A DNA stretch of 51,079 nucleotides, taken from positions 1,980-53,058 of the forward strand of contig JAGOEZ010000001.1 of the NCBI GenBank assembly GCA_017997455.1, in the 5' to 3' direction. How positions within the stretch are numbered: position 1 is the first letter of the stretch; every line of letters starts with the position of its first letter. The notes under the pieces were generated by a model. The model did no database searches. It worked only from the letters and a program-made list of their open reading frames with translations, and was not told where the DNA came from. Source of the stretch: Lysobacterales bacterium. Lineage in GTDB: Bacteria; Pseudomonadota; Gammaproteobacteria; Xanthomonadales; Ahniellaceae. Shown here in pieces: positions 1-51,079 of this stretch. Made by a program: the position numbers and the translations under genes.

Positions 1-2811
1 GGCCGCGGCCTCGGCCAGCACCCGCTCCGCCTGCTCCGGCTTGCCCCACGCCGCGTACATCTCCACGACCCGGTCGCGCGCCGCCTTGACCCGCGGGTCG
101 GTGGCGGGAAATGCGCCGGCGATGGTCTTCCAGGCCTCGAGCACCAGCGGTTCGGCCTCTTCGAAACGGCGCTCCAGGTACAGGGCCTTGCCGTAGCCGC
201 CGCGGATCGCGGCGAGTTGCCAGTTGCCGGCCGGCAGTGCCCGGGTCGCGCGCGGCAGCAGCGCGGCGTAGCCTTCGGCGGCGCGCGCGGCATCGCCGCG
301 GTCGCGCACCACCGACAGGTAGTTGTTCTCGATCAGCACGGTTTCCGGATGGTCCGGGCCGTTGGCCTGCGCGTAAAGATGCGCGGCCTGTCCCAGCAGC
401 ACCTCGGCCCTGGCCAGGTCGTTGCGATCGCGCGCCATCACCGCGAGGAAGCTCAGGGTGCGGACGGTCTCCGGATGGGCCTCGCCGAGCACCGCGCGGC
501 GGCGTTCGTAAACGTCCTGCATGACCCTCTCGGCCTCCTCGCCGCGCTGCTCCGCGCGCAGGCCGATCGCGAGGTTGGCCCGCATCGTGAGCACGTCGGG
601 ATGGTCGGCGCCGAGGATGCGCGTGCGCACGCCGATGATGCGCTCGAACAGCGGGATCGCCTCGGCATTGCGCCCGGCGTTGCTGAGCGCGGTGGCGACA
701 TGGGCGAGATAGCGCAGCGTGTCCGGATGTTCCGGCCCCAGGACCTGCTCGGCCGCCTGCGCCGCCTCGCGGTAGCGCTGCTCGGCGAGCGCGTAGTCGC
801 CGCGCCGCAGCGCCAGGTTGGCGCCGCGCGAGACCAGCTGCAGGACCACCGGGTGCGCGGGTCCCAGGCGCACGCGCTCGGCTTCGTAGGCCTGCTTGAT
901 CAGCGCATCGGCCTCGTCCCATTCGCCCTGCGCGCCGAGCAGGTCGGCAAGCCCGGCGCGGGCGCCGCTGGCCTCGGTGGAATCGACGCCATTGGCCGCC
1001 TCCGCGGCGGCCAGGTTGGCGCGCGCCATCGCCACCGCGGCCTTGCCGTCGCCCAATTGCGCCGCGAGTTCCGCCGCGGCGCGGCGCGCCTCGTCGGCCG
1101 AGCCCGGCGCCAGCCCCTGGATTGTGGACAGGCCCGGCAGCAGCGGCTGCAGGGCGACCTGGGCCGCCTGGTACTCGCCGCGTTCGGCCAGCACCAGCGC
1201 CAGCTCGAGTTCGGCCTGCACGCGATCGGCCGCATCCGCCGGCAGTTGCGCGGCGAGGGTGGCGACCGCGGGCTCGAGCAGCTTCTGCGCGTCGTCGAGC
1301 AGGCCCAGGCGCCGCAGCGTGCGGCCCAGCAGCGTGCCGATCTGGCCGCGCAGGCGCGGGTCGTCGACCAGGCTGGCGTCGAGTTCGCGCCCCGCGCTCT
1401 GCAGGGCGTCCGCCAGCTTGACCTCGCGCGCGTTGGCCGAGTCGCCGCGCAGCTTCCACGGATCCGGCGCCGCGATCATGCGCTCGAGGAAGTCCTGCGT
1501 CGCCCGCGCCCGCGCGCTCTCGGTCTCGGCGGCGACGCGCGCGACGTCGGCGCGCTCGCGCTGGGCGCGCGCTTCCAGCGCCATCCACGTCGTGCCGACG
1601 ATGCCGCCGACCAGCGACAGCAGCACCGCGGCGGCGGCACCCACCACCAGGCGGTTGCGCGCGACGAACTTGCGCAGCATGTAGACGCGGCTCGGCGGGC
1701 TCGCCAGCACCGCTTCGCCGTTGAGGAAGCGGCGGATGTCGGCGGCGAACTCGGACGCCGAGGCGTAGCGCCGCTCGCGGTCGCGCTCCAGCGCCTTGAG
1801 CACGATCCAGTCGAGGTCGCCACGCAGGTGGCGCGCCAGCGCCGGACCGTCGCTGGACATCGCCTTGCGCCAGTTGAAGTCGCCGCCGCGGGTCAGTTCG
1901 GCGACGCGCCGGCTCGGCGGCTTGATCGGGTACTCGTTGAGGAGCTTCGCCAGCTCGGCGTCGGGCGTGCGCGAGATCACTTCGCCCGGGATCGGCAGTT
2001 CGTGCGTGACCAGCTTGTAGAGCACCACGCCCAGCGCGTAGACATCGGTCCGGGTATCGATCGCGCCGGGGTCGCCACCCGCCTGCTCGGGGCTCATGTA
2101 GGCCGGCGTGCCCAGCGGCATGCCGGCGCGCGTGGTGCCGGGTTCCGGGCGCCCGAGCGGATCGAGGCTCTTGGCGATCCCGAAGTCGATCACCTTGACC
2201 AGCACCTGGCCCTGGTAATCGGCCACCAGCAGGTTTCCGGGCTTGAGGTCGCGATGGATCACGCCCTTCTGGTGCGCGTGCTGCACGCCTTCGCACACCT
2301 GCAGGAACAGCTCCACCCGGTGGCGCAGGTCGGTGCCGCGGCGGTCGCAGAACTCGTCCAGCGGCACGCCGGGCACGTACTCCATCGCGAAATAGAGCCG
2401 CCCCTCGCCGGTCGCGCCCACGTCCAGCACCTGGGCGATGTTGGGATGGGACATCCGCGCCAGCAGCTCGCGCTCGGCGCGGAAGCGCGACAGCAGCTCC
2501 TCGCTGTCGAAACCGGCCTTGATCACCTTGAGCGCGACCTGGCGCCGCACCGGCGCGGTCTGGTCGGCGAGGTACACCGCGCCCATGCCGCCGCTGCCGA
2601 TCTGGGCCGAAATGCGGTACGGGCCGAGGGTGCGGCCCTTCATCGAGAAGGGGCTGTCGTCGCCGGGATCGATGGAGGCAGCGGACGGCGCGTCCCCGCC
2701 GGGGGCCTGCGGCGGCGCGCGCGTGGCGCCCGCGTCCTCGGCAAGGCCAGGCGGCGCGGCGCCGCCGGGCGGCTTGGCTGGCGGCGGATCCTGGTCGCGG
2801 GTGCCGGTCAT
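1..2811 (-). CDS. Hanks-type Ser/Thr protein kinase with one TM segment and a long C-terminal TPR-like repeat region (3' end runs off the window start)
   Basis: Own translation of the minus strand from ATG 2811 gives IGSGGMGAVY (P-loop), VALKVIK, HRDLKPGNLL (about 2227-2256) and IDFGIAK. These are followed by a hydrophobic stretch LVVGAAAAVLLSLVGGIVG and about 550 aa of Ala/Leu-rich TPR-like repeats, with no stop before position 1. It is absent from the ORF track because it is open at the window edge. An in-frame alternative ATG lies at 2880. Confidence 0.9.
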   Translation of the reverse strand, partial: MTGTRDQDPPPAKPPGGAAPPGLAEDAGATRAPPQAPGGDAPSAASIDPGDDSPFSMKGRTLGPYRISAQIGSGGMGAVYLADQTAPVRRQVALKVIKAGFDSEELLSRFRAERELLARMSHPNIAQVLDVGATGEGRLYFAMEYVPGVPLDEFCDRRGTDLRHRVELFLQVCEGVQHAHQKGVIHRDLKPGNLLVADYQGQVLVKVIDFGIAKSLDPLGRPEPGTTRAGMPLGTPAYMSPEQAGGDPGAIDTRTDVYALGVVLYKLVTHELPIPGEVISRTPDAELAKLLNEYPIKPPSRRVAELTRGGDFNWRKAMSSDGPALARHLRGDLDWIVLKALERDRERRYASASEFAADIRRFLNGEAVLASPPSRVYMLRKFVARNRLVVGAAAAVLLSLVGGIVGTTWMALEARAQRERADVARVAAETESARARATQDFLERMIAAPDPWKLRGDSANAREVKLADALQSAGRELDASLVDDPRLRGQIGTLLGRTLRRLGLLDDAQKLLEPAVATLAAQLPADAADRVQAELELALVLAERGEYQAAQVALQPLLPGLSTIQGLAPGSADEARRAAAELAAQLGDGKAAVAMARANLAAAEAANGVDSTEASGARAGLADLLGAQGEWDEADALIKQAYEAERVRLGPAHPVVLQLVSRGANLALRRGDYALAEQRYREAAQAAEQVLGPEHPDTLRYLAHVATALSNAGRNAEAIPLFERIIGVRTRILGADHPDVLTMRANLAIGLRAEQRGEEAERVMQDVYERRRAVLGEAHPETVRTLSFLAVMARDRNDLARAEVLLGQAAHLYAQANGPDHPETVLIENNYLSVVRDRGDAARAAEGYAALLPRATRALPAGNWQLAAIRGGYGKALYLERRFEEAEPLVLEAWKTIAGAFPATDPRVKAARDRVVEMYAAWGKPEQAERVLAEAAA

Positions 2812-2902
2812 GCGGGCGGGCTCATGCGGATGCCCGCATCTTGGCTCCGCGTCCGCGACGCCGCAAGCGCCCGCGGCCATGCGGCCGCGATAAGCTCGGG
2901 CC

Positions 2903-3463
2903 ATGCTCCTAGCCCAGGTCCAACTCGGTCTGCCGCCGTGGGTGCACGAACTCGTCGACCCGGCGCTCGTGTGCGCGGACGACGGCGCGAAGATGGCGCT
3001 GGCGGTCCGGCTTTCGGCCCTCAACGTCGAGCACGAGACCGGGGGACCGTTCGGCGCGGCGATCTTCGATGCCGCGGGACGCCTGCTCAGCGTCGGGGTC
3101 AACCAGGTGGTGGCGCAGAACTGCTCGGTCGCGCATGCGGAGATGCTGGCCTTCATGCTGGCCCAGCGGCGGCTGCAGCGCTTCCGCCTCGACGCGGATG
3201 GATCGCGCTACACCCTGGCGACCAGTTCGCAGCCCTGCTGCCAGTGCTACGGCGCCAGCGTCTGGGCCGGCATCAGCGAGCTCCTGGTCGGCGCGCGGGC
3301 CGAGGACGTGATGGAACTGACGGAGTTCGACGAGGGCCCGCTGCCGGCCGACTGGACCGGCGAACTGGAGCGCCGCGGCATCGCCGTGCGCCGCGACCTC
3401 GGGCGCGATGCGGCGCGCGAGGTCCTGCGGCGCTACGGCAGCGGGGGCGGACGCCGCTACTGA
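2903..3463 (+). CDS. CDA-fold nucleoside/nucleotide deaminase (TadA/guanine-deaminase-like), substrate not assignable
   Basis: ORF track, 186 aa. Zinc-deaminase signatures HAE (CSVAHAEMLAF) and PCxxC (SSQPCCQCYGA). Divergent from the kinase gene. Confidence 0.8.
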   Translation: MLLAQVQLGLPPWVHELVDPALVCADDGAKMALAVRLSALNVEHETGGPFGAAIFDAAGRLLSVGVNQVVAQNCSVAHAEMLAFMLAQRRLQRFRLDADGSRYTLATSSQPCCQCYGASVWAGISELLVGARAEDVMELTEFDEGPLPADWTGELERRGIAVRRDLGRDAAREVLRRYGSGGGRRY

Positions 3464-4772: not shown

Positions 4773-7697
4773 ATGTTCGCTTCATATCCGATCGCAGCAC
4801 GAGGCGCGCTCCTGGCATTTCTGGCCGCGCTTGGCCTCGGCGTCGCGTCACCCGCGAAGGCCCAGGTGGTCATCAGCCAGGTCTACGGCGGCGGCGGCAA
4901 CAATGGCTCCCTCTACCGGAACGATTTCGTCGAACTGTTCAACCGCGGCGCGGCACCGGTCAATGTCACTGGTTGGTCGTTGCAGTTCACGAACGCCACG
5001 GCGACCAACGCCTGGACCGTCACGGCCCTGAGCGGCACGATCCAGCCTGGCGCCTACTACCTTATCCAGCAGGCCGCTGGTACGGGCGGCACCGTGGACC
5101 TGCCGACCCCGGATGCGACCGGGACTGCCGCTATGGGCGCAACGTCCGGCAACGCGATCCTGCTCAGTGCCAACACGCAATTGCCGACCGGATGTCCCGC
5201 AGGCGGCAACGGCGCAGTGATCGACCGGGTCGGCTACGGGGCGACGGCGATCTGCGGCGAAACCGCCCCGACGGCGGCGCCCAGCAACACGACGTCTGTA
5301 GGCCGCGGCAGCAACGGCTGCACGGATTCCGGCAACAACAGCAGCGACTTCACGGTTTCCGCCGGCAGCAACACCTTCGTGCCGCGCAATTCGTCGAGCG
5401 CGCTCAATCCCTGCGGTCCGGTTGGCACCAGCCTCAGCGTCAACGACGTCGCCGCGATCGAAACCGACGCCGGCACCACCACCTTCTCCTTCACCGTCTC
5501 GCTGAGCGCCCCTGCTGGCGCCGGCGGCGTGACCTTCGACATCGCCACCGCCGACGGTACGGGGACGCTGGCCGACAACGACTACGTCCAGCGCGCCTTG
5601 ACCGGGCAGACGATCGCCACGGGCAACTCGAGCTATACCTTTGATGTGAGCGTCAATGGCGATCTCACCAACGAGCCCAACGAGACCTTCTTCGTCAACG
5701 TCACCAACGTGACGGGCGCCACCGTCGCCGACGGCCAGGGCCAGGGCACGATCAACAACGACGATGCGCCGCTGACCCCGATCCACGCCATCCAGGGCAA
5801 CGGCGCGGCCTCGCCATTGCTGGGCAACGCGGTGGTCACGCGCGGCGTGGTCACGGTGCGGGTCAACAACGGCTTCTACTTCCAGACCCCGGACGCCGAC
5901 GCCGACGCCGACCCCAACACCTCGCAGGGCATGTTCGCGTTCACGTCGAGCGCACCACCCGCCGGCGCGGCGGTCGGCAACCTGGTCCAGGTGGCCGGGA
6001 CGGTGGCCGAGTTCGTGCCGCCGACCGACCTCAACCAGCAGCCGTTGACCCAGTTGACCTCGCCCACCACCACCGTGATCGCTACCGGGCAGCCGCTGCC
6101 CGCGCCGGTGACCCTGACGACCGTGTTGCCCGATCCCGCGGGCGGCATCGAGCAGCTCGAGCGCCTCGAGAACATGCGCGTCACCGCGCCGTCCTTCACC
6201 ATCACCGGCGCCACCGGCGGCTCGATCAGCGAGCCCAACGCCACGTCGACCACCAACGGTCGCTTCTACGGCGTCGTCGCCGGCACTCCGCGGCCATTCC
6301 GCGAAACGGGCCTGGAACCCGAGGATGCGGTCGGGCAGCCGGCGACGATCCCGCGCTGGGATGGCAATCCGGAGCGAATCAACTTCGAGAGCCTGCGCGC
6401 ACGCAATGCCGCCGGCACCTTGCGCACGGCGATCAACGTCGACGCCGGCCAGGGCGTGTCGGGCCTCACCGGCGTGATCGACTATGCCTTCCGCAACTGG
6501 CGCTTCACCATCGACTTCGACGCCGTGGCCGTGGTGACCGGCAGCGCGACCGCGGGGGCGGTGAGCGCGGCCACGCCGGCCGAGTACACCGTTGCCAGCT
6601 ACAACCTGCAGCGCTTCTTCGACGACAACAACGATCCGGCGCTCAGCGAACCGGTGCTGACCCCGGCCGCGTTCGCCAACCGACTGGCCAAGGCCTCGCG
6701 CGGCATCCGCGAGTTCCTGCGCGCGCCCGACATCATCGGCATCGTCGAGATCGAGGATCTCGCCACCCTGCAGGCGCTGGCGACCCGCATCAACGCCGAT
6801 GCGGTCGCCGCCAACGAACCGGATCCCCAGTACCAGGCCTACCTGAGCAATGGCACCGATCCGGGTGGCATCGACGTGGGTTTCCTGGTCAAGGCCGCGC
6901 CGGTCGTGGGCAGCACGCCGCGCGTCGCGGTGAACAGCGTGACCCAGTTCGGTCTGAACACGCTGCTCAAGTGTCCCGATGGCAGCGACAACGTGACCGG
7001 CGAGCGCCTCAACGACCGGCCGCCGCTGCTGCTCGACGCCGTGGTCGCGGCACCCAACGGCGCCAGCGCGCCGGTGGTGGTGATCGTCAACCACTCGCGT
7101 TCGCTCGGCAGCGCCACCTCGACCGCGGCACCGCCCGTGGGTCCCTGCCCGGTGGTGAACTTCGCCACCGAAGGCGACCGCGTGCGGCGCAAGCGCCAGC
7201 AGCAAGCCGAATTCCTCGCCGACCTGGTGCAGGCGCGCCAGGTCGCCAACCCGAACGAGAACCTGGTCGTGGTCGGCGACTTCAACGCCTTCGAGTTCAA
7301 CGATGGCCTCGGCGACTCGATCGGCGTGATCTCCGGCACGCCGGCGCCGGACAACGAGACCGTGGTTCCCGGCGATGGCATCGACCTCGTGAACCCGAAC
7401 CTCGGCAACCTCATCGCCGGGGTCGCCGCGCTCCAGCGCTACAGCTACGTGTTCGACGGCGACGCGCAGAACCTCGACCACGCGCTGGTGAATGCCGCGA
7501 TCGCCGCCAGCGCGGCGCCGGTCCGCCTCGAGCATGCGCGCATCAATGCCGATTTCGCCGAGGACAACCGCGGCGACACCACGGTGCCGCTGCGCCTGTC
7601 CGACCACGATCCGGCGGTGGCGTACTTCACGGGCCCCGGCTTTGGGCTGCCCGATGCCGTGTTCAGCAATGGCTTCGAGGATCCGCCGCCGCCCTGA
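4773..7697 (+). CDS. Secreted ExeM/NucH-type extracellular nuclease (lamin-tail domain + Calx-beta-like + endonuclease/exonuclease/phosphatase domain)
   Basis: 974 aa. Signal peptide ending SPAKA/QV. LTD motif ISQVYGGGGNNGSLYRNDFVELFN. Calx-beta-like segment ending GTINNDD. IHAIQGNGAASPL motif. EEP-domain motifs YNLQRFF and LSDHDPAVAYF. A GAGGGG Shine-Dalgarno lies just upstream. Confidence 0.85.
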   Translation: MFASYPIAARGALLAFLAALGLGVASPAKAQVVISQVYGGGGNNGSLYRNDFVELFNRGAAPVNVTGWSLQFTNATATNAWTVTALSGTIQPGAYYLIQQAAGTGGTVDLPTPDATGTAAMGATSGNAILLSANTQLPTGCPAGGNGAVIDRVGYGATAICGETAPTAAPSNTTSVGRGSNGCTDSGNNSSDFTVSAGSNTFVPRNSSSALNPCGPVGTSLSVNDVAAIETDAGTTTFSFTVSLSAPAGAGGVTFDIATADGTGTLADNDYVQRALTGQTIATGNSSYTFDVSVNGDLTNEPNETFFVNVTNVTGATVADGQGQGTINNDDAPLTPIHAIQGNGAASPLLGNAVVTRGVVTVRVNNGFYFQTPDADADADPNTSQGMFAFTSSAPPAGAAVGNLVQVAGTVAEFVPPTDLNQQPLTQLTSPTTTVIATGQPLPAPVTLTTVLPDPAGGIEQLERLENMRVTAPSFTITGATGGSISEPNATSTTNGRFYGVVAGTPRPFRETGLEPEDAVGQPATIPRWDGNPERINFESLRARNAAGTLRTAINVDAGQGVSGLTGVIDYAFRNWRFTIDFDAVAVVTGSATAGAVSAATPAEYTVASYNLQRFFDDNNDPALSEPVLTPAAFANRLAKASRGIREFLRAPDIIGIVEIEDLATLQALATRINADAVAANEPDPQYQAYLSNGTDPGGIDVGFLVKAAPVVGSTPRVAVNSVTQFGLNTLLKCPDGSDNVTGERLNDRPPLLLDAVVAAPNGASAPVVVIVNHSRSLGSATSTAAPPVGPCPVVNFATEGDRVRRKRQQQAEFLADLVQARQVANPNENLVVVGDFNAFEFNDGLGDSIGVISGTPAPDNETVVPGDGIDLVNPNLGNLIAGVAALQRYSYVFDGDAQNLDHALVNAAIAASAAPVRLEHARINADFAEDNRGDTTVPLRLSDHDPAVAYFTGPGFGLPDAVFSNGFEDPPPP

Positions 7698-7759: not shown

Positions 7760-8611
7760 ATGCATTCCACCGACGATCCCAGGAACCCGCGCGAACCCGG
7801 CCCGGCCGCGCCGCTGGCCTTGCTCGAGCGCACCCTTCGCGCCGATGTCGAGGAGGCGCGCGCGATCGAGCCGCTGATCGAGCAGGCCGACAGCGTCCAT
7901 GGCCGCATCCGGCGCGGACTCGGCCGGGTGGCGCCGCTGCTGGGCCTGCTGGTCCTGGGTGCGATCCTGGTCGGCAGCGGGCTGTACCGCGAACTGACCA
8001 TCGAGAACCTCGCCACGCACCACGACGACCTGCTCGCGTGGGTCGCCACGCACCCGGTGCTGGCGACGATGGGCCTGCTCGGCGCGCTGGCCCTGATCGT
8101 CAGCACCGGGCTGCCCGGCGGCGCCGTGCTGGTGGTGGCCGCGGGCTTCCTGTTCGGGGTCCTGCCCGGCACCCTGGTCGCGATGAGCGGCGCCGCCATC
8201 GGCGCCAGCGTGCTGTATTTCGCCGCGCGCCGCGTGTTCGTCGGCGGCGGCAAGGAACCGGCGCTGGCCACCCGCGTGCGCGAGGGCTTTGCGCGCAATC
8301 CGGTGAGCTTCGCCTTCTTCATCCGTCTGGTGCCGGTGTTCCCCTTCGGCGCCGCCAGCGTCGCGCTGGCCTGGGCCGGCTGCCGGCCGCTGCTGTTCCT
8401 GGCCGCGACCTTCTTCGGCAACCTGCCCTCGTCGCTGGTGTACACCGCGATCGGCGCCGGGCTCGACCGCACCCTGGCCGAGCACGGCACGGTGTCCCTG
8501 AGCCTGCTCGCGCAGCCGCGCTTCCTGCTGCCGCTGGCGGCCCTGGCGCTGCTGGCCCTGCTGCCGGTGTTCTTCGGCCTGCGCGGCCGGCGTCGCGCCG
8601 GCAAGGCCTGA
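7760..8611 (+). CDS. TVP38/TMEM64 (DedA-related, SNARE-associated) family inner-membrane protein
   Basis: This is the in-frame tail of track ORF 6971..8611, starting at the only ATG before the first TM segment. It has multiple hydrophobic helices, and motifs such as LPGGAVLVVAAGFLFG and FFIRLVPVFPF are typical of the family. Confidence 0.75.
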   Translation: MHSTDDPRNPREPGPAAPLALLERTLRADVEEARAIEPLIEQADSVHGRIRRGLGRVAPLLGLLVLGAILVGSGLYRELTIENLATHHDDLLAWVATHPVLATMGLLGALALIVSTGLPGGAVLVVAAGFLFGVLPGTLVAMSGAAIGASVLYFAARRVFVGGGKEPALATRVREGFARNPVSFAFFIRLVPVFPFGAASVALAWAGCRPLLFLAATFFGNLPSSLVYTAIGAGLDRTLAEHGTVSLSLLAQPRFLLPLAALALLALLPVFFGLRGRRRAGKA

Positions 8612-8625
8612 GCCGCGCCGCCGCA

Positions 8626-10458
8626 GTGAAGGCCCGGTCCGCGCGCCCTCGCCTCCGCTACGCATTGGCGCTGGCCATGCTGTGCCCCTGGTGGCCGGCC
8701 GCCGCGGCGCTGGCTGCGGCAAAACCGGACGCGCCCGCGCCGCGCATCGCGCTGACCATCACCGGGGTCAAGGACGCCCAGCTCAACGCGGTGCGCGATG
8801 CCCTCGACCTGCACGCCTGGCGCAATCGCGGCGACCTGACGCCGGCACGGATGGCGCGCCTGCAGCGCCGCGCGCCGGCGCAAGCGCGAGCCGCGCTGGA
8901 GATCTACGGCTACTACAGCGCCGGGGTCGAGGTGAGCTCGCAGCCGCGCGCGGATGGCTGGGACGTGAAGGTCGCGATCGAGCGCGGCGAACCGGTGCGG
9001 GTGACGGTGCTCGACGTGCAGGTGACCGGCGAGGGCGCGCCGGCCGGCAACATCCCGATCGGCGACGAGTCCGAGCCCGGGCTTGCGGCCGCGCTGCGAC
9101 GTTTCCGGCCGCGGGTGGGCGAGGTCTTCGACCACGTGCTCTACGAGCAGTCCAAGCGCGGCGTGGAGCGCGCGCTGCTGCGCTACGGCTTCTTCGACTT
9201 CGACGCCACCCGCCAACGGGTGGAGGTCAGCCGCGGCCAGCGCAGCGCGGAGGTGCGCCTGCACTGGGAGTCGGGCCCGCGTTTCCGCTTCGGCGAGCTG
9301 CGCTTCACCGGCGCGCAGTTCCCCCCGGCCTTCATGCAGCGCTTCGCCAGCTTCGAGCGCGGCGAGCCCTTCGACCACGCGCGCCTGGAACTGCTGCAGC
9401 AACGGCTGGCGCAGAGCGAGTACTTCGGCCAGATCGTGGTTGCGCCCGACCCGGAGGCGGCGAGCGGGGGCGAGGTGCCGGTCAACGTCACCCTGACGCC
9501 GGCGCTGCGCACGGTGTACACCGCCGGACTGCTGATCGACTCGGACTACGGCGCCGGCGTGCGCTTCGGCGTCGACCGGCGCTGGGTCAACGACCGCGGG
9601 CACCGGCTGCGGGCCAAGTTCGAACTCGCGCAGTACCTTGACGTCGCCGCAGCGGAGTACGTGTTCCCGCGCGCGGCCAGCATCGAGAGCGCGTGGGCGG
9701 TGGCGGCGCGCTACCGCGACGAGAACACCGATGCGGTCGACGCCAGTTCCTATTCGCTCAGCGGCAGCCTGATCGTGCCCTGGCGCGGCTGGAGCGTGGT
9801 CAGCTCGCTCAATGCGCTCGATGGCACCTTCACCAACAGCAGCCAGGACGACGGCGTCATCGACCAGTTCACCGAAAGCACCCTGGTGTTCTACCCCGAG
9901 CTGCGCGCCGACCGCGTGTTCGCGCGCAGCCGCATCCGTCCGCGGCGCGGCGCGTCGCTGTCCCTGCGCGCCCGCGGCGCCAGCGACAGCGTGCTGTCGG
10001 AGGTCTCGCTGCTGCAGCTCCATGGCTTCGGGCGCTACATCATGCCGATCGGCAAGGCCAACCGCCTGCTGCTGCGCGCCGAACTCGGCGCCACCTCGAC
10101 CGACGACATCACCGCGCTGCCGCCCGAACTGCGCTTCTACGCCGGCGGCTCCAACAGCGTGCGCGGATATGAATTCCAGAGCGTGGGCGCGCGCGACGCC
10201 GACGACGAGGTGATCGGCGGCAAGTACGTGGCGACCGCGAGCCTCGAATTCGAGCGCCAGTTCCGCCCCGACTTCGCCTGGGCCGCGTTCGTCGATGCCG
10301 GCGATGCCTGGTCCGACGGTTCGCCCGACATCGTGTTCGGCGCCGGCTTCGGCATCCGCTGGATTTCCCCCGTCGGCCCGGTGCGCGTGGACCTCGCGCA
10401 TGGCTTCGACGACGACAGCGTGGTCACGCTGCACGTCTCCGCCGGACCCGACCTGTGA
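8626..10458 (+). CDS. tamA: Translocation and assembly module outer-membrane subunit TamA (Omp85/BamA family)
   Basis: This is the tail of track ORF 7492..10458. GTG 8626 gives a proper signal peptide (KARSARPRLR + hydrophobic core + AAA). It has POTRA-like N-terminal repeats and a C-terminal Omp85 barrel (RFYAGGSNSVRGYEFQS, FVDAGDAW). It overlaps tamB by 4 nt (GTGA). Confidence 0.85.
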   Translation: MKARSARPRLRYALALAMLCPWWPAAAALAAAKPDAPAPRIALTITGVKDAQLNAVRDALDLHAWRNRGDLTPARMARLQRRAPAQARAALEIYGYYSAGVEVSSQPRADGWDVKVAIERGEPVRVTVLDVQVTGEGAPAGNIPIGDESEPGLAAALRRFRPRVGEVFDHVLYEQSKRGVERALLRYGFFDFDATRQRVEVSRGQRSAEVRLHWESGPRFRFGELRFTGAQFPPAFMQRFASFERGEPFDHARLELLQQRLAQSEYFGQIVVAPDPEAASGGEVPVNVTLTPALRTVYTAGLLIDSDYGAGVRFGVDRRWVNDRGHRLRAKFELAQYLDVAAAEYVFPRAASIESAWAVAARYRDENTDAVDASSYSLSGSLIVPWRGWSVVSSLNALDGTFTNSSQDDGVIDQFTESTLVFYPELRADRVFARSRIRPRRGASLSLRARGASDSVLSEVSLLQLHGFGRYIMPIGKANRLLLRAELGATSTDDITALPPELRFYAGGSNSVRGYEFQSVGARDADDEVIGGKYVATASLEFERQFRPDFAWAAFVDAGDAWSDGSPDIVFGAGFGIRWISPVGPVRVDLAHGFDDDSVVTLHVSAGPDL

Positions 10459-30951: not shown

Positions 30952-31039
30952 GGTCGTGCCCGCGATTCTATCGCCAGCCGGGTGCGTAGTCGCGCACGGG
31001 ATGCACTTGAACGCTGCAGATTGCCAAGGTCTCGCCCCC

Positions 31040-31126
31040 TGTAGGAGCGCATCTCATGCGCGACCGCGGACTCGGAGTTCACCGAAACCTGCAGTGCCGC
31101 GGTCGCGCATGAGATGCGCTCCTACA
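31040..31126. repeat. REP inverted pair, family A
   Basis: TGTAGGAGCGCATCTCATGCGCGACCGCGG ... CCGCGGTCGCGCATGAGATGCGCTCCTACA. The right-hand CTAC contains the lgt stop codon. It lies between lgt and thyA. Confidence 0.9.
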
Positions 31127-31994
31127 GTCCGTTTCTGGTGTGCGGGGGCAAGGCCTGCCGCCGCGACAGCGCCAGCAACACCAGCCCCACCGCCACCAGC
31201 GGCAACGACAGCACCTGCCCCATCGTGAGCCACTCGAAGGCGAGGTACCCGAGGTGCGCATCCGGCACCCGCACGAACTCCACCAGGAAGCGGAAGCCTC
31301 CGTAGAGCACCGCGAACCAGCCCGACACCGCATAGCGCCGCCGCGGCTTCGCCGAGTACCACCACAACAGCGCGAACATCAGCAGGCCTTCGAGCAGGGC
31401 TTCGTAGAGCTGCGAGGGATGGCGCGCGTACGCACTAAGCTCGCCGACCTGGTGCAGCGCCTGCAGGCGCTCGGGCGACAGCCCTGCGTACTGCGCGGGC
31501 AAGCCGCTCGGAAAGACCACGGCCCACGGGACATCGGTGGTCTTGCCCCACAACTCGCCGCCGATGTAGTTGCCCAGGCGCCCGAAGCCCAGGCCCGGCG
31601 GCACGATCGGCGCGACGAAGTCGATGGTGTCCCAGGTCGCGATGCGATGGCGTCGCGACCACCACCACATGCCGACGAGCACGCCGACCAGCCCGCCATG
31701 GAAGGACATGCCGCCCTCCCACACGCGCAGCAGCGCCAGCGGATCGTGGATCCACTCCTGCCACCCGTACACCAGCATGTAGCCCAGGCGACCACCGGCG
31801 ATCACGCCCAGCATGCCGTAGAACATCAGGTCGGAATACGCCGCCTCGTCGATGCCCAGGCGCCCGGCGCGCACGCGCCGCAGGCCCAGCCAGTAGCCGA
31901 TGCCGAAGGCGAGCAGGTACATGATCCCGTACCAGTGGATCGAGAGCGGCCCGAGGCGCAGGGCGATCGGGTCGATCTGGTGCAGGATGGTCAT
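31122..31994 (-). CDS. lgt: Prolipoprotein diacylglyceryl transferase Lgt
   Basis: Track ORF 31122..32234; I prefer ATG 31994 ([30 protein letters not shown]). [31 protein letters not shown] and HPSQLYEA. Confidence 0.9.
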
Positions 31995-32116
31995 GCCGCT
32001 CGGACTCGCTACGTACGGATCGGCGCGCTGACGGAGTCGACGCCCGGTGATTATGGACGATCGCAAATGGGGACGCGATGGCCGAACCAAGGTGACCGAC
32101 GCAAAACGAGAGCGCC

Positions 32117-34516
32117 CTACAGACGCTCCGACTCTCCAAGTGCCCGGGCCAGCATCGAATCGTCGATCCGCGATCGGACAATGGCAAGTCCCGCACCTAC
32201 GCAGCAAGCGCCGGCCGCCAGGCCGATGGCCCACGCGAGGGGTAGTGCGTCAGCCTTCCCCGATGGACTCAGCAGCGAAACAACCAGCAGGCTGGCCGTC
32301 ACCAGAGCGGCCGAGAGCAGACTCGCCGGCCACAGCCGTGCCCGCACCAGCGCCAAGGCCAGTTCCCAACGCCCGGCGCCGAAGGTCCAGCGCACGGCAA
32401 GCTCGGGCCGCATCCACTCCAGGGCTGCCAGCAAGGTACTGACGCACATCGCGACCGCGACCAGGGACACGACCACCATGATCAGGATCGACAGCAAGGC
32501 AACCGCAAGGTCAAGTCGAAGGTCTTCCGCAATCCTCTCCGCCACGGGGCGCGAAGGCCCCAAGGTCGCGCCGGGCACGATCGCCGCCAACGTTGACCCG
32601 ATTGCCGCGAGCTCCGGCCCACTCTCGCCCCGCCACAAGACGACACCGAGCCCGCTCGCCTGCCGGAGCGGGAGGTAGATCGTGGGCGTGGCGCTTCCGC
32701 GCGCGTCCGCGTACTGGGCGTCTTCGGCCAAGCCGCAGATCTCGATCTCGGGAAAGGTAGCCGATGCAGACGGGATCGATGCTCGGATCCTCGCGGCAGA
32801 GGGGCCTGCTGGTAGCCCGTGCTGCCGCAGGAATACCCGGTTCGCGATCGCCTGGTGCTCGCCAAGCATGCCGAGCGGCCCGCACCACGATGTAGCCGGA
32901 GTGCCGATCAGCGAGAAGTAGTTGCTGGTGACGAAGTTGATCGAAACGAGGTCGCTACGCGATGCGTTGTTCCATTGAATAACCGAGGAAACCACATTCG
33001 GCACGCCAATTGGCGCCGCTGTTGCCGCCGCGACCCTGCTGTCCGGCCTATCCATCGATACACCGTCAATCATGGCGGCGATCGAGCGACCATCGAGCAC
33101 GCTCGGGACACCACCGCCTACTTCCTCACTGCGGACGACGGGCGCGTTCTGCAGCCCCTCAACTTCGAATCCAAAGTCGCGCGTCGAAAACTCCAGCGCA
33201 CGATGCACGCCGAGAGTCGCCGTTCCCGCGACCACGACGACCGCGCACGCAGAGACGACGATCAATGCCATGGCGCCATGCTTGAGTCTGCGGATTCCCG
33301 ACTTCGCCTTGCCCATCGTTGGCGTGCCCGAAACCCAGGACTGCAATACCAATGGAACAGTTGCGATGATCGTGGCGACCAACAGCCATAGCGCCATTGC
33401 CTGCAGGCCTCCAGGCAGCGTGTTCAGAGTCTCGCGAAGTGGCAGCCCGGTTGCCTTCGGCGGAATCACGCCCAAGGTCGCCACGACTACCGCAGCACAG
33501 GCGACTACGACCAGCGCTGCGATTAGTTCCGCGCCCGCGCGCCTTGCCCACCAACGCCCCCTCGTCTCGCCGACCGCCATCCGCACGGCGTCGCTCGCAC
33601 GCTGGCGCATGAGCATGACGAATCGAGTCGCAACGTAGGTCGCGACAAGGACCACGGCCATCGCCAGCGCATTGAGCAAGAGCGCATCGCCCCACGCGCG
33701 GTAGACGATGCGCCGCTGCGGCGTATCGCCTACGCCAGGGAGCAAGGCCGCGCGCAGAGTAGAAAAGCGACTGGAAAATTGCAGCCAGTGATTCACCGAT
33801 GCGGCCCCAGCGACGAAGCCGCGGCTGGCCTTGAGCCCGATGAACTGCGGCCGAAGTGGGGCAACAACGTCCTGCATCCCCCGGGGCACGATCGCATAGG
33901 GCCACGCGCCGAGTGGAACCCAGCCCACCACAGGGCGCTCGGCCACTGGGCCGTCAAACGCACTCAGGGCGACCCCCACGATCCGAAACTCTACGCTTCC
34001 AGTGCTGCCTGGACGGGTATCTCCGATCGACTGCCATCGAATGCTTCGGCCTATTGCGGCTGCCTCGCTGCCAAACCAGGCACGCGCGGCGGTACGCGTT
34101 AGGACTACTTCCGCACCGGCATCCCCCTGCAAATCGAGCGCTAGACTGCGTGCCGTCAAAGTCCTTCCTAGAATCGGGACGCCAAGAATCGGCAACAGGT
34201 CCCCGGTCGTCCAGGCAAGGGTCTGGCGTCCCAAGGACCGATCATCGGCCCAAACCTCGCGAGTTAACGGCAAGGCCGTGAACCACTCACCGCCAACGCG
34301 GTCGCCGTCCAGCGCCGCCAACGCATCGAACGGAAGGGACTCGGCCACACCGAGAAAGGAGCCCGCCAACGCGATGTAGACGGTAGCGACGCGACCGTCC
34401 GGCGCACTTCCGGGAAGCCTGGGTTGCCGAACGTAGCTGGCCAAGCCGAGGCAGATTGCAAGCAATGCTAGACCCAAGCCAACGCCTGCGGGCTGCAATG
34501 ATCGACCCAGGCGCAT
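32117..34516 (-). CDS. Duplicated MacB/FtsX-type ABC permease (two [TM - periplasmic MacB_PCD-like domain - 3-TM FtsX] modules), no cognate ATPase nearby
   Basis: 799 aa. TM1 is [22 protein letters not shown]-like motifs in half 1 are [25 protein letters not shown] ... EFRIVGV. The FtsX motif is [28 protein letters not shown]. The second half repeats the pattern ([32 protein letters not shown], then [24 protein letters not shown]). Confidence 0.8.
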
Positions 34517-34517
34517 C

Positions 34518-35042
34518 TCAGAATAGGACTAAATTTACGTCCATCACCGTGGGTTGGATGCCGCGTCGCGCCAATTCCGCATCCAGCGTCGGACGGACGC
34601 GGGCGCAAGGCTCGCACATCGCCGCGAGTGCAGCGGGCACGACCACCAGCACGAGGCCGTCATTGCCGACGGCGTCCACGTCAAGCCGTGGAAACAGCTC
34701 CGTAATCTTCGCGGCGCCCTGCACGCAATCGAAGTTCAGACCGGAAATGAAGTCCAACTCGTATGCGCCCGCCAGACAGCCATCGAGGCCGAACGCCAAC
34801 ACGATCGGGAACCACGCAACTCGCGGATCGCCTGCCGCGCCTGCGGGCAGGCTGGCAGTGCCAGCCTTAAGCGCACCAGATCGATCAATGCTGCTCCTAA
34901 GTTCCACACTGGAAACGGACGGGCCTGAAGGCGTGGTTACTGGGACGTGGATCGGGTCGGCAGCAAACAAGCGCAACGGCATGCCCAAGGTGCCAGCGAT
35001 TGCACCGACGAGCGCTATCCCAAGCATGCTACGAGGAATCAT
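34518..35042 (-). CDS. Hypothetical exported protein with a C-terminal CxxC (CEPC) motif
   Basis: Track ORF 34518..35159 begins at a TTG. I prefer ATG 35042, which gives a signal-peptide-like MIPRSMLGIALVGAIAGTLGMPLRLFA/AD. Length 174 aa. There are four Cys in the mature part, including LVLVVVPAALAAMCEPCARV. Its stop lies 1 nt from the permease ATG. The start is uncertain. Confidence 0.55.
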   Translation of the reverse strand: MIPRSMLGIALVGAIAGTLGMPLRLFAADPIHVPVTTPSGPSVSSVELRSSIDRSGALKAGTASLPAGAAGDPRVAWFPIVLAFGLDGCLAGAYELDFISGLNFDCVQGAAKITELFPRLDVDAVGNDGLVLVVVPAALAAMCEPCARVRPTLDAELARRGIQPTVMDVNLVLF

Positions 35043-35206
35043 CAGGTATGTGCTCAAGCAACCCATGCAAGTCAACTTGGGTACCGCCCACATACATGGG
35101 CGGCCCCAAGGCGCTGAGTGAACTTCATCAAACGACCGACGTAGCCGGTTTCCCGCCAATACGCATTCGGGAGATGCTGACTATCGTCGCGGGTTACGCG
35201 AGAAAC

Positions 35207-35386
35207 CTAGAACGGGTGGTAGATGCATCGACCTCGCTCGCAAAAGAGAAAGCCGACCAACACCCCGGCCTGGAACACTGGATGCATCCCGTCGGGAAGC
35301 GCATTCGCTTCCTGTACCCCCGAAGCTCCCAGCACGAGGGCAACGGCCATCAGTACAGGCATCACGCGTTTCACTAGTGCTCGCAT
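35207..35386 (-). CDS. Small secreted peptide precursor (59 aa; predicted 29-aa Sec signal + 30-aa mature Cys-x4-Cys peptide)
   Basis: Track ORF 35207..35407. The internal ATG 35386 is preceded by GGGAGAG with a 5-nt spacer. MRALVKR + VMPVLMAVALVLGASG + QEANA/LP is a canonical n-h-c signal with an AxA site. The mature peptide is LPDGMHPVFQAGVLVGFLFCERGRCIYHPF. Confidence 0.5.
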   Translation of the reverse strand: MRALVKRVMPVLMAVALVLGASGVQEANALPDGMHPVFQAGVLVGFLFCERGRCIYHPF

Positions 35387-35594
35387 GTGTACTCTCCCGA
35401 GAGTCATCCCCCAACTGCCATCCTAACCGAGGCTCAAGGCAGACGCATAGTCCGCATTGAGTCGCTATCGGACGATTTGGGGTTCGCTTCGTTGCCGTCA
35501 TGCTTCAGGTACTTGCTGCGCGCACTAGGACCCAGGTCCTCTCGACGGAATTCCGGCCGCATGGTGCTCCTCGCGGTCGTCATACGCCTGCCGA

Positions 35595-36830: not shown

Positions 36831-36918
36831 GGCGCCAGTGTGAGGCCTCGCCGTCGCGCGGGGAAGCATCCCGCGGGCCTGCGTGGCAAGCTGGCGGCCC
36901 CGCCTGCAGGCCCGCCCC

Positions 36919-39028
<2,110 letters not shown>

Positions 39029-39033
<5 letters not shown>

Positions 39034-50167: not shown

Positions 50168-51079
50168 TCAGTCGCCGTCGCGGTAGATGGCAGTGCGGAC
50201 CTTGCCGTCGGCGTCGATCGTGCCGCGATACATGCCCTCGGTGTTGAACGGCATCGCCACGCGGCCGCTCGCATCCAGCGCGATCACGCCGCCGTCGCCG
50301 CCCAGCGCCGGCACGACCTTGAGCACGACCTCCTCGGCGGCTGCCCGCACCGAGTCGCCGCGGTAGGCCATGCGCGCGCAGATGTCATGCGCGACCGCGG
50401 CACGGATGTAGAACTCGCCCCAGCCGGTCGCCGAAACCGCGCACTGCGCGCTGGCGTAGGTGCCGGCGCCGATCACGGGCGCATCGCCGATGCGGCCCCA
50501 GCGCTTGTTGGTCATGCCGCCGGTGGAAGTCGCCGCGGCCAGTTGCCCCTTGGCGTCGCGCGCCACCGCGCCCACGGTGCCGAAATAGGCCGTGGCCGGC
50601 AGCGTCGCCGAGGCCTGCGCCTTCTCGGCGGCCAGCGCCATCTGCAGCTGCTGCCAGCGCTCCTCGGTGCGGAAGTACGCCGGATCGACGAACTCGAATC
50701 CGATGCTCTTCGCGAAGGCCTCGGCGCCCTCGCCCGCCATCATCACGTGCGGCGACTTTTCCATCACCGCGCGCGCCAGCAGGACCGGGTTGCGGATGCG
50801 ATGCAGGCCCGCGACCGCGCCGGCGCGGCGGGTGGCGCCATCCATGATCGAGGCATCCAGTTCGTTGACGCCGTCGTGGTTGAACACCGCACCCTTGCCG
50901 GCGTTGAAGTACGGCGAGTCCTCCAGGACCACGATCGCCCGGGTCACCGCGTCGAGGCTGCTCCCGCCCTGCGCAATCACCGCGTGGCCGGCGCGCAGCG
51001 CGCGCGTGAGGTCGGCGCGCACGGCGGCCTCGCGTTCGGCGCTCAATTCGGCGCGCGGCATGGTCCCGGCGCCGCCGTG
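50168..51079 (-). CDS. Isoaspartyl peptidase / L-asparaginase (Ntn-hydrolase, IaaA-like); 5' end runs off the window
   Basis: The track ORF starts at an internal Met (51061), but the frame stays open to the window end and reads HGGAGTM.., the conserved N-terminal motif. Also NAGKGAVF and the autoproteolytic site GTVGAVA. GDAPVIGAG. Confidence 0.85.
   Translation of the reverse strand, partial: HGGAGTMPRAELSAEREAAVRADLTRALRAGHAVIAQGGSSLDAVTRAIVVLEDSPYFNAGKGAVFNHDGVNELDASIMDGATRRAGAVAGLHRIRNPVLLARAVMEKSPHVMMAGEGAEAFAKSIGFEFVDPAYFRTEERWQQLQMALAAEKAQASATLPATAYFGTVGAVARDAKGQLAAATSTGGMTNKRWGRIGDAPVIGAGTYASAQCAVSATGWGEFYIRAAVAHDICARMAYRGDSVRAAAEEVVLKVVPALGGDGGVIALDASGRVAMPFNTEGMYRGTIDADGKVRTAIYRDGD

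Follow-up and report, generated by a model that had tools for sequence, protein, structure and literature searches.

A fixed partner-permease core behind a variable front gene in an undescribed envelope cassette of a Lysobacterales bacterium

The cassette and its closest described relatives

In ABC (ATP-binding cassette) systems of type VII, the function of each system is defined by its partner protein (PMC12646458). The permease superfamily is well known, and so is the puzzle posed by the "acidobacterial duplicated orphan permeases" (ADOP; TIGR03434), which are called orphans for want of a linked ATPase and whose function is unknown (PMC3914696). Here, we describe a cassette of three minus-strand genes from a Lysobacterales bacterium (contig JAGOEZ010000001.1 of assembly GCA_017997455.1), which combines a permease of the ADOP type with a dedicated four-cysteine partner protein and, at the front, the precursor of a small peptide. 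The stretch analyzed, hereafter the window, is 51,079 nt long and supplies the coordinates used throughout; the trio runs in one direction inside a 3.6-kb island of low G+C content (GC) between lgt and an rlmI-type methyltransferase gene. The cassette is a real, undescribed envelope system because the same gene order recurs in distant relatives. Its partner family, its peptide families, and the three-gene architecture are absent from Pfam, NCBIfam, PADLOC, and the literature searched, which likewise offered no partner, substrate, or function for ADOP-type permeases.

Like the ADOP, the window permease is ~800 aa long, consists of two halves of the FtsX type that both contain a MacB-like periplasmic domain, and has no adjacent ATPase gene. 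It differs from them in scoring nothing against TIGR03434 or Pfam FtsX/MacB_PCD, in belonging to a tiny subfamily with a periplasmic Cys pair of its own, and in the dedicated four-Cys partner gene that this subfamily always has in front, which to our knowledge is not a described ADOP feature. The subfamily brings together a periplasmic partner that is strictly linked, several unrelated versions of a candidate peptide ligand, and natural core-only variants; through the defined partner and the candidate ligand, the orphan-permease problem becomes directly testable.

Among characterized systems, E. coli MacAB-TolC expels the heat-stable enterotoxin STII, a Sec-delivered, DsbA-oxidized peptide on which the pump acts from the periplasm (PMC5985334). 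Its permease has the fold found in the window (Foldseek matches 5nik and 5gko), and STII is a small Sec-delivered peptide with disulfides made in the periplasm. However, MacB is a homodimer with four transmembrane helices (TM) per chain and a fused ATPase that requires the MacA adaptor and TolC, whereas the window system is a single 8-TM chain with its own small periplasmic partner and without a nucleotide-binding domain (NBD), an adaptor, or a duct gene. YknXYZ protects Bacillus against SDP, a Sec-exported peptide of ~40 aa with one disulfide (PMC5985334). YknWXYZ thus exemplifies a MacB-family permease that guards cells against a Sec-exported disulfide peptide, probably from outside the membrane (PMC5985334), but it is a Gram-positive system of four components, including the ATPase YknY and the adaptor YknX; the sdpABC toxin operon lies elsewhere, and neither the peptides nor the accessory proteins are related in sequence to those of the window. 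In YbbAP-TesA, YbbP provides the best structural match, namely, a single pseudo-symmetric duplicated permease chain, and a periplasmic partner of ~180 aa encoded alongside defines the function (PMC12646458). YbbP, however, has 10 TM, an adjacent ATPase (YbbA), and an SGNH hydrolase as partner, in contrast to the 8 TM, the lack of a local ATPase, the partner fold of no known type, and the linked peptide gene of the window system.

A two-gene core with a variable front slot

The three open reading frames (ORFs) are real genes, conserved in independent metagenome contigs. An identical cassette occurs on contig JAGNNY010000025 of GCA_017990415.1, divergent versions occupy the same chromosomal site in other metagenome contigs, and purifying selection acts on all three genes, with ratios of nonsynonymous to synonymous substitutions (Nei-Gojobori dN/dS) of 0.15 to 0.29 for the partner and the permease and of 0.05 to 0.08 for the peptide between close alleles. 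Chance ORFs were ruled out as an explanation by dN/dS and synteny. All ORFs proposed in a preliminary description, made from the window alone, were present with the gaps that it gave (164 nt and 1 nt), and alignments showed the N termini that it had chosen to be the conserved ones. The low-GC island that it had perceived was equally evident, with a GC of ~64% (61 to 66%) against 69 to 72% in the flanks and ~72% over the whole window. Third-position GC was 0.67 to 0.74 in the cassette genes versus 0.86 to 0.93 in lgt and rlmI; the cassette is therefore compositionally foreign.

Neighborhoods were readable in 11 lineages (Table 1), and in every one of them a partner-family gene stands directly upstream of the permease gene, down to ~24 to 26% permease identity. 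Stop and start codons of the pair are 1 to 6 nt apart, arranged as TGA-N-[A/G/T]TG in eight lineages (TGAgATG, with a 1-nt gap, in the window) and separated by 3 to 6 nt in the other three. The slot upstream of the partner was readable in 10 lineages, six of which carry, within about 250 nt, a small signal-peptide ORF with at least two Cys. These ORFs fall in three unrelated families: the window type (GFLFCxxGRCIYxPF) and two 6-Cys types, found in L025 (signal peptide followed by EYSGSCIAGICCMAGPEGSFCCAFENGFICSFHFG) and L028 (signal peptide followed by DGCGVSCREVGGGWWYCCGTGDCAGDCYYVDQNSPF). A crude detector of a signal peptide plus at least two Cys picked up all six and six other ORFs in 139 kb, both strands included, i.e., a background of about 0.0065 expected per 300 nt of one strand. 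The locus thus consists of a fixed two-gene core, partner plus permease, and a front gene that is a variable, often peptide-encoding slot. The three-gene unit of the preliminary description recurs, with homologues of both small ORFs linked to such permeases in other contigs, but it is not invariant, since the pair is found in 11/11 lineages and the peptide is an accessory (6/10). Amino-acid identity to the window was 78% for the peptide, 59% for the partner, and 66% for the permease in lineage C, and 74% for the partner and 81% for the permease in lineage B; the partners of D1 and D2 are ~30 to 35% identical to that of the window and accompany the same peptide family.

Table 1. Occupants of the slot upstream of the partner gene
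Lineage (loci)	Upstream of partner	Cys peptide
A (window, L002, L024)	Peptide gene	Yes
B (L003-L006)	301-aa secreted protein and lgt 5′ fragment	No
C (L001, L007-L010)	Peptide gene	Yes
D1 (L017-L019)	Peptide gene	Yes
D2 (L020-L022)	Peptide gene	Yes
E (L023)	BrnT toxin-antitoxin pair	No
F (L011, L013-L016)	739-aa BNR/Sortilin-like protein	No
G (L012)	Membrane dipeptidase	No
P0010 (L025-L027)	73-aa ORF, 6-Cys mature peptide	Yes
P0016 (L028)	59-aa ORF, 6-Cys mature peptide	Yes
P0013 (L029)	Contig ends upstream of partner	

Two other occupants of the region deserve mention. Between rlmI and the cassette, lineage B has a signal-peptide protein of 301 to 311 aa with several Cys (L003:3755-4690), which matched nothing in Pfam or PADLOC. 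In lineage F, the gene immediately in front of the partner, where other lineages have the peptide gene, encodes a large secreted repeat protein of the BNR/Sortilin-Vps10-like kind with a ...GFE end (L013:7644-9863, L011:1-1767); in L012 such a gene is close by (L012:2860-5298). It may be an alternative cargo or an unrelated neighbor.

Cassette alleles have been replaced at a fixed site. The hosts of L001 and L003 are close, with a synonymous divergence (dS) of 0.10 to 0.15 and 95 to 97% amino-acid identity in lgt, rlmI, and thyA, whereas their cassettes, at the same site, differ by a dS of about 1.6 to 1.8. The window host is separated from both by a dS of 0.29 to 0.43, and its cassette is nearer to that of L003 (dS about 0.55). 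Host divergence being far below cassette divergence, the alleles must be much older than the host split and have been exchanged at this site. Old divergent alleles at one site in close hosts are typical of strain-interaction loci, and several cassette alleles were found together in the same sample series. The contigs stem from series SRR149325xx, SRR14092361/3, and ERZ286138xx. The locus hence behaves like a hypervariable recombining island in a conserved housekeeping neighborhood, which is relevant to strain-level competition in the sampled communities. The partner gene of L003 is preceded by 162 nt that repeat the 5′ end of lgt in degenerate form (4988-5149 versus 8213-8374; 87% identical, start ATG changed to ACG), so that direct lgt repeats border the two-gene core. 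Such an arrangement resembles what remains after a core without a peptide gene has inserted, either by a single crossover (Campbell-type) or duplicatively. Separately, the metagenome-assembled genome (MAG) CALKUS01 ("uncultured proteobacterium") holds two paralogous partner-permease pairs on different contigs (L011 and L012), which are 37 to 39% identical to the window permease and in which, unlike in the window, module GC equals flank GC.

The permease of the window is an 8-TM, internally duplicated MacB/FtsX-fold protein of the ADOP type. The preliminary description was right in this assignment, but only relatives and structure bear it out, because the profile searches that it had suggested returned nothing for the window permease itself (Pfam FtsX PF02687 and MacB_PCD PF12704, NCBIfam TIGR03434; none at an E value of ≤1), and the permease alignment, used as a profile against PDB sequences, found no match either. 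A word-indexed homologue search recovered the protein itself and one 66% relative only. An exhaustive hidden Markov model search of 1.84 billion representatives yielded 261 relatives, and the close subfamily is tiny, with about 18 full-length clusters at E<1e-30 and roughly 28 members at E<1e-10. Among 27 aligned relatives, MacB_PCD was matched by 21, FtsX by 9, and TIGR03434 (ADOP) by 18, with a best E value of 1e-256; relatives P0009-P0018 scored 27 to 50 bits against a Pfam cut-off of 27, and the L006 permease, 81% identical to that of the window, has a precomputed MacB_PCD match. Subfamily records with a named source come from a Xanthomonadales bacterium and from an "uncultured proteobacterium" MAG, one relative in NCBI and three in JGI/IMG carry the name "hypothetical protein," and a four-sequence profile search of species-representative genomes found one MAG only. 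The AlphaFold2 (AF2) model (mean predicted local distance difference test [pLDDT] 86; predicted template modeling score [pTM] 0.79) shows 4+4 TM, periplasmic α/β domains at about residues 43-260 and 455-652, helices between TM2 and TM3 and between TM6 and TM7, and a C-terminal helix. Its best Foldseek match was E. coli YbbP (9ge6/9ge7; E value 3e-13), followed by MacB (5nik, 5gko; 1.5e-10) and further by LolCDE, a Streptococcus pneumoniae MacB-like transporter, HrtBA, and BceAB; isolated MacB periplasmic domains reached a TM-score of up to 0.65 on the target. In periplasmic domain 2, the pair C545/C594 (SWCG...EICG) is present in 17/18 close subfamily members and missing from canonical ADOP-like relatives, whose strand at this place is the usual IVGVV.D; it is probably a subfamily-specific disulfide.

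No local ATPase accompanies this permease. None of the ORFs in the 51 kb combines Walker A with LSGGQ, no ABC_tran domain was detected among 30 Pfam-scanned window ORFs, HlyD or Biotin_lipoyl-type adaptors were found neither in the window (Pfam scans) nor in related loci, and neither an ATPase nor an adaptor stands beside the module in the 11 lineages, on contigs of up to 29 kb. The absence of both from the window, noted in the preliminary description, thus extends across related lineages. Its parallel remark on a missing regulator or peptidase needs the caveat of a Ser/Thr kinase and an asparaginase/isoaspartyl-peptidase homologue, both far from the cassette. The coupling-helix motifs xDxxRxxLGE (TM2-TM3; DAVRMAVGE in the window) and LAxRxxxGA (TM6-TM7) are conserved from the window permease through the canonical ADOP-like relatives, and R312, G316, and G713 vary little or not at all; the corresponding helices of YbbP are where the ATPase binds (PMC12646458). 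Conservation of these NBD-coupling motifs suggests that an ATPase is encoded elsewhere in the genome and makes the "self-contained module" of the preliminary description doubtful.

The partner represents a new protein family. It is very rare, with nine 90%-identity clusters among 5.8 billion proteins, and it has no Pfam or NCBIfam match; one partner allele is present on 260 contigs. Its AF2 model (pLDDT 77.7; 85 to 95 in the core) is good over residues 40-174 and had no significant Foldseek match in PDB or BFVD (best E value 0.55, about 0.6). The predicted secondary structure is ββα followed by βαβ, with a conserved WFP ahead of the first core strand; a strand at 129-135 is followed by C143-E-P-C146 and a helix at 144-160, so that the CxxC sits at a helix start in a thioredoxin-like manner, and this segment aligns in register with the WCGPC-helix-strand of thioredoxin. 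The order of elements in the model would fit a circularly permuted thioredoxin fold. Thioredoxins were the sole matches of a family-profile search of the PDB, though nonsignificant (E value 0.6 to 0.9 over ~35 residues); hhalign against E. coli TrxA gave a probability of 5%, and an artificially permuted partner alignment found nothing in PDB and Pfam beyond the local, nonsignificant CxxC-helix match. The CxxC is kept in 11/12 aligned members, including lineages without a peptide gene; in L028 it is replaced by MPDRS. An oxidoreductase role is thus possible but not established, since L028 has lost the CxxC and yet retains C89, C106, and an upstream 6-Cys peptide gene. The oxidase or chaperone function that the preliminary description had suggested for this protein is not supported, given the lack of a significant thioredoxin fold match, the loss in L028, and the retention of the CxxC where the peptide is absent. 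A redox relay between the partner CxxC and the permease Cys pair was considered and rejected, because L028 keeps the pair without the CxxC and the two do not covary.

The peptide precursor shows the features of a signal sequence (a basic n-region, a hydrophobic core of 13 to 15 residues, and an AxA site), with predicted cleavage at ANA|L, ASA|L, or ANA|G across alleles; AxA is kept although the signal sequence drifts. The mature part is hydrophobic and uncharged in the window, with a calculated monoisotopic mass of 3404.68 Da reduced and 3402.67 Da oxidized, and its C-x4-C is invariant in the family alignment. Between lineages A and C the signal peptide is free to diverge, unlike the mature part, which is 29/30 identical between the window and L001 (0.043 nonsynonymous versus 0.88 synonymous differences per site, pN and pS, with synonymous sites saturated) and hence near-invariant between alleles whose partners and permeases are 59% and 66% identical. 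The family (PVF..G.L[VI]GFLFC..GRCIY.PF-stop) occurs in lineages A (including A2), C, D1, and D2, and no homology to described peptide families was found in Pfam, NCBIfam, or PADLOC. Searches with protein patterns and with a 48-nt degenerate DNA pattern were unmatched in a metagenome-contig collection that evidently does not contain the carrier contigs and are therefore uninformative on wider occurrence. The unrelated peptide families have similar C-terminal ends, ...YHPF, ...YQPF, and ...NSPF, in each case right before the stop codon (Table 2; L028:48-227; L018:246-425). That the aromatic ...PF-COOH tail might be a recognition feature, e.g., for a PDZ-type or β-signal-type binding site, is pure speculation. 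The spacer between the peptide and partner genes folds with −69.9 kcal/mol (z = −2.85 versus shuffles), and its GC-rich hairpin, which has no U-tail, may act as an mRNA stabilizer or attenuator.

Candidate functions of the cassette

Our preferred reading, which we advance tentatively, is that the cassette is a horizontally exchanged envelope module whose fixed core of translationally coupled partner and permease, behind a variable front gene, handles a Sec-delivered disulfide peptide in the periplasm, for export or self-protection, with its ATPase encoded elsewhere. The peptide would cross to the periplasm via Sec, lose its signal peptide at the AxA site, and be oxidized, for which either the general Dsb system or the partner could be responsible. 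The partner, seated on the periplasmic domains of the permease, would capture the peptide. Rather than carry it across the inner membrane, the permease would work mechanically on its periplasmic side, as other type VII ABC systems do, with energy from an ABC ATPase encoded elsewhere in the genome. This work would remove the peptide from the periplasm or from the outer leaflet of the inner membrane, thereby expelling it, keeping it off the producer's own inner membrane, or both. Core-only lineages would then be holders of orphan immunity. In favor of this reading are the permease fold, the invariant linkage of partner and permease, the recurrence of Cys-peptide ORFs above the background, the near-invariant mature peptide with its conserved AxA site, the replacement of alleles at a fixed site, the conserved coupling-helix motifs, and the precedents of STII and SDP.

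Several observations weigh against this proposal. Four of the 10 readable lineages (B, E, F, and G) hold partner and permease without a small peptide gene, so the peptide is dispensable for the core. In L025 and L028, the peptide ORF is represented by one sequence each. With a pI of 4 to 6.9, the peptides are neutral to acidic, whereas typical membrane-active bacteriocins are cationic, and a near-invariant mature peptide beside a diverging partner and permease is the reverse of the usual toxin/immunity co-diversification. An ATPase for the permease was not identified in the 51 kb or in related contigs, and we know of no demonstration that any member of the ADOP class uses one. Neither is an outer-membrane duct or adaptor linked to the cassette, which leaves no evident route across the outer membrane.

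A bolder formulation, in our judgment unlikely, sees a hitherto unrecognized class of polymorphic Gram-negative (Xanthomonadales) peptide locus, in which a Sec-delivered disulfide toxin, or possibly a mimic of an outer-membrane-protein C terminus with its aromatic ...PF-COOH end, would be joined to an ATPase-less ADOP-type export or immunity machine with a new, possibly circularly permuted thioredoxin-like partner. If true, it would provide the first substrate, partner, and testable function for the "orphan" ADOP permeases and could uncover a type VII ABC fold that operates on a borrowed ATPase, or on none.

The peptide-less lineages lend themselves to another explanation, the main rival, which we likewise consider doubtful: partner and permease could form an envelope-maintenance machine unrelated to the peptide, in the manner of YbbAP-TesA. 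The permease would pull out a membrane or lipid-linked molecule and hand it to the periplasmic partner, which would act on it, possibly via its CxxC; exchangeable cargo of the island, or modulators of minor effect, is what the small upstream ORFs would be. Consistently with this idea, the core is universal among the lineages while the peptide is not, the CxxC persists where the peptide is missing, the structurally closest permease, YbbP, has its function set by a periplasmic enzyme partner of ~180 aa, and the L003 insertion apparently involved the two-gene core alone. However, three unrelated families of Cys-rich mini-ORFs with signal peptides at the same position, against a chance of ~0.0065 per site, are hard to reconcile with indifferent cargo, the mature peptide is under extreme purifying selection, which speaks for a specific role bound to this site, and the partner has no recognizable enzyme fold.

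Ancient divergent alleles at one locus in close hosts, and several of them in the same sample series, would also be expected of peptide signaling or kin recognition, with the peptide as a cue, the partner and permease as its periplasmic receptor (compare sensing by BceAB, which is among the structural matches), and the alleles as specificity groups; the noncationic nature of the peptide would suit such a cue. We regard this as improbable, because no lineage has a linked histidine kinase, response regulator, or other transducer gene, peptide-less lineages exist, and a peptide that is near-identical between alleles with very different partners and permeases is the opposite of what specificity groups should show.

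That the cassette is a decayed fragment of a MacB-type ABC transporter operon, stripped of ATPase and adaptor and with small ORFs that are noise, might be read from the ATPase- and adaptor-free 51 kb, the lack of direct profile matches, and the toxin-antitoxin debris at the island edge, but it can be practically dismissed, since it is contradicted by dN/dS (0.15 to 0.18 for a 799-codon ORF intact in every lineage; purifying selection on both small ORFs) and by synteny (an ATPase-less architecture in 11 lineages at 24 to 81% identity, no relative having an adjacent ATPase), as well as by the confident AF2 model of the permease.

Feature map and island surroundings

Features of the cassette and its surroundings are collected in Table 2. 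A terminator-like hairpin with a T-run, recognized in a consensus scan only, marks the end of the cassette transcription unit before lgt. A sigma-70 promoter scan returned no site, a scan that is uninformative at the GC of this genome. Direct searches of Pfam, NCBIfam, and PADLOC with all three cassette proteins gave zero matches, and PADLOC thus pointed to no phage-defense system.

Table 2. Positions of cassette features and selected neighbors in the window
Feature	Position	Strand	Remarks
Ser/Thr kinase	1-3207		Distant from cassette
Perfect 31-nt inverted repeat	31039-31069 / 31097-31127		27-nt loop; at lgt stop codon and in lgt-thyA spacer
lgt	Start 31994	Minus	Island border
Terminator-like hairpin and T-run	32109..32129	Minus	Overlaps permease stop; consensus scan only
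Permease gene	34516->32117	Minus	799 aa; duplicated type VII ABC fold (MacB/FtsX, ADOP-like), 8 TM (4+4)
Permease C545, C594	32882-32884, 32735-32737	Minus	Periplasmic domain 2
Partner gene	35042->34518	Minus	174 aa; hydrophobic N terminus for export or anchoring; four conserved Cys (C89, C106, C143, C146)
Partner C143-E-P-C146	34616->34605	Minus	CxxC
Peptide-partner spacer	35043-35206		164 nt
GC-rich hairpin in spacer	35075..35110	Minus	No U-tail
Peptide precursor gene	35386->35207	Minus	59 aa plus stop; Shine-Dalgarno GGGAGAG 5 nt upstream
Signal peptide	35386->35300	Minus	Codons 1-29; ...QEANA|LP
Mature peptide	35299->35210	Minus	30 aa, LPDGMHPVFQAGVLVGFLFCERGRCIYHPF; C-x4-C loop
C-terminal tail of peptide and stop	35207-35224	Minus	
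Remnant ORF	35434..35562	Minus	42 aa (MRPEFRREDLGPSARSKY...); between rlmI and peptide gene
rlmI-type methyltransferase gene	Stop 35595		Island border
DUF255/Thioredox_DsbH protein	36883-39033	Plus	Thioredoxin domain; two genes from cassette
Asparaginase/isoaspartyl-peptidase homologue	50168-51079		Distant from cassette

The remainder of the window is made up of housekeeping genes, as seen in Pfam scans of 30 further ORFs; thyA and lgt were identified through the annotation of related loci rather than by Pfam. The first side encodes the Ser/Thr kinase, RlmM, a nuclease, TamA/TamB, UbiH-like oxidoreductases, LptD, SurA, PdxA, KsgA, MipA, an ApaH-like protein, FolA, a DUF2238 protein, ThyA, and Lgt, and the region beyond the island encodes RlmI, the DUF255 protein, GcvP, two TPM proteins, LemA, TerC, DgkA, AIM24, bPH_2 proteins, and the asparaginase. 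The nearness of the DUF255/Thioredox_DsbH gene to that of the CxxC protein is probably coincidental, because it belongs to the housekeeping synteny conserved in all related contigs.

At the rlmI edge of the island, the 42-aa remnant ORF resembles the N terminus of a 96-aa ORF that follows a BrnT toxin gene (Pfam E value 4e-24) directly upstream of the partner in L023 (L023:3-492), both containing the motif RPE[F/Y]RREDLGP; probably a toxin-antitoxin pair formerly made up this edge and left the remnant behind. Where lgt ends, the perfect inverted repeat makes a strong hairpin, which is a terminator or else a repetitive extragenic palindromic (REP)-like element, and a related arm occurs twice in L003, at 4850-4875 and 9166-9191.

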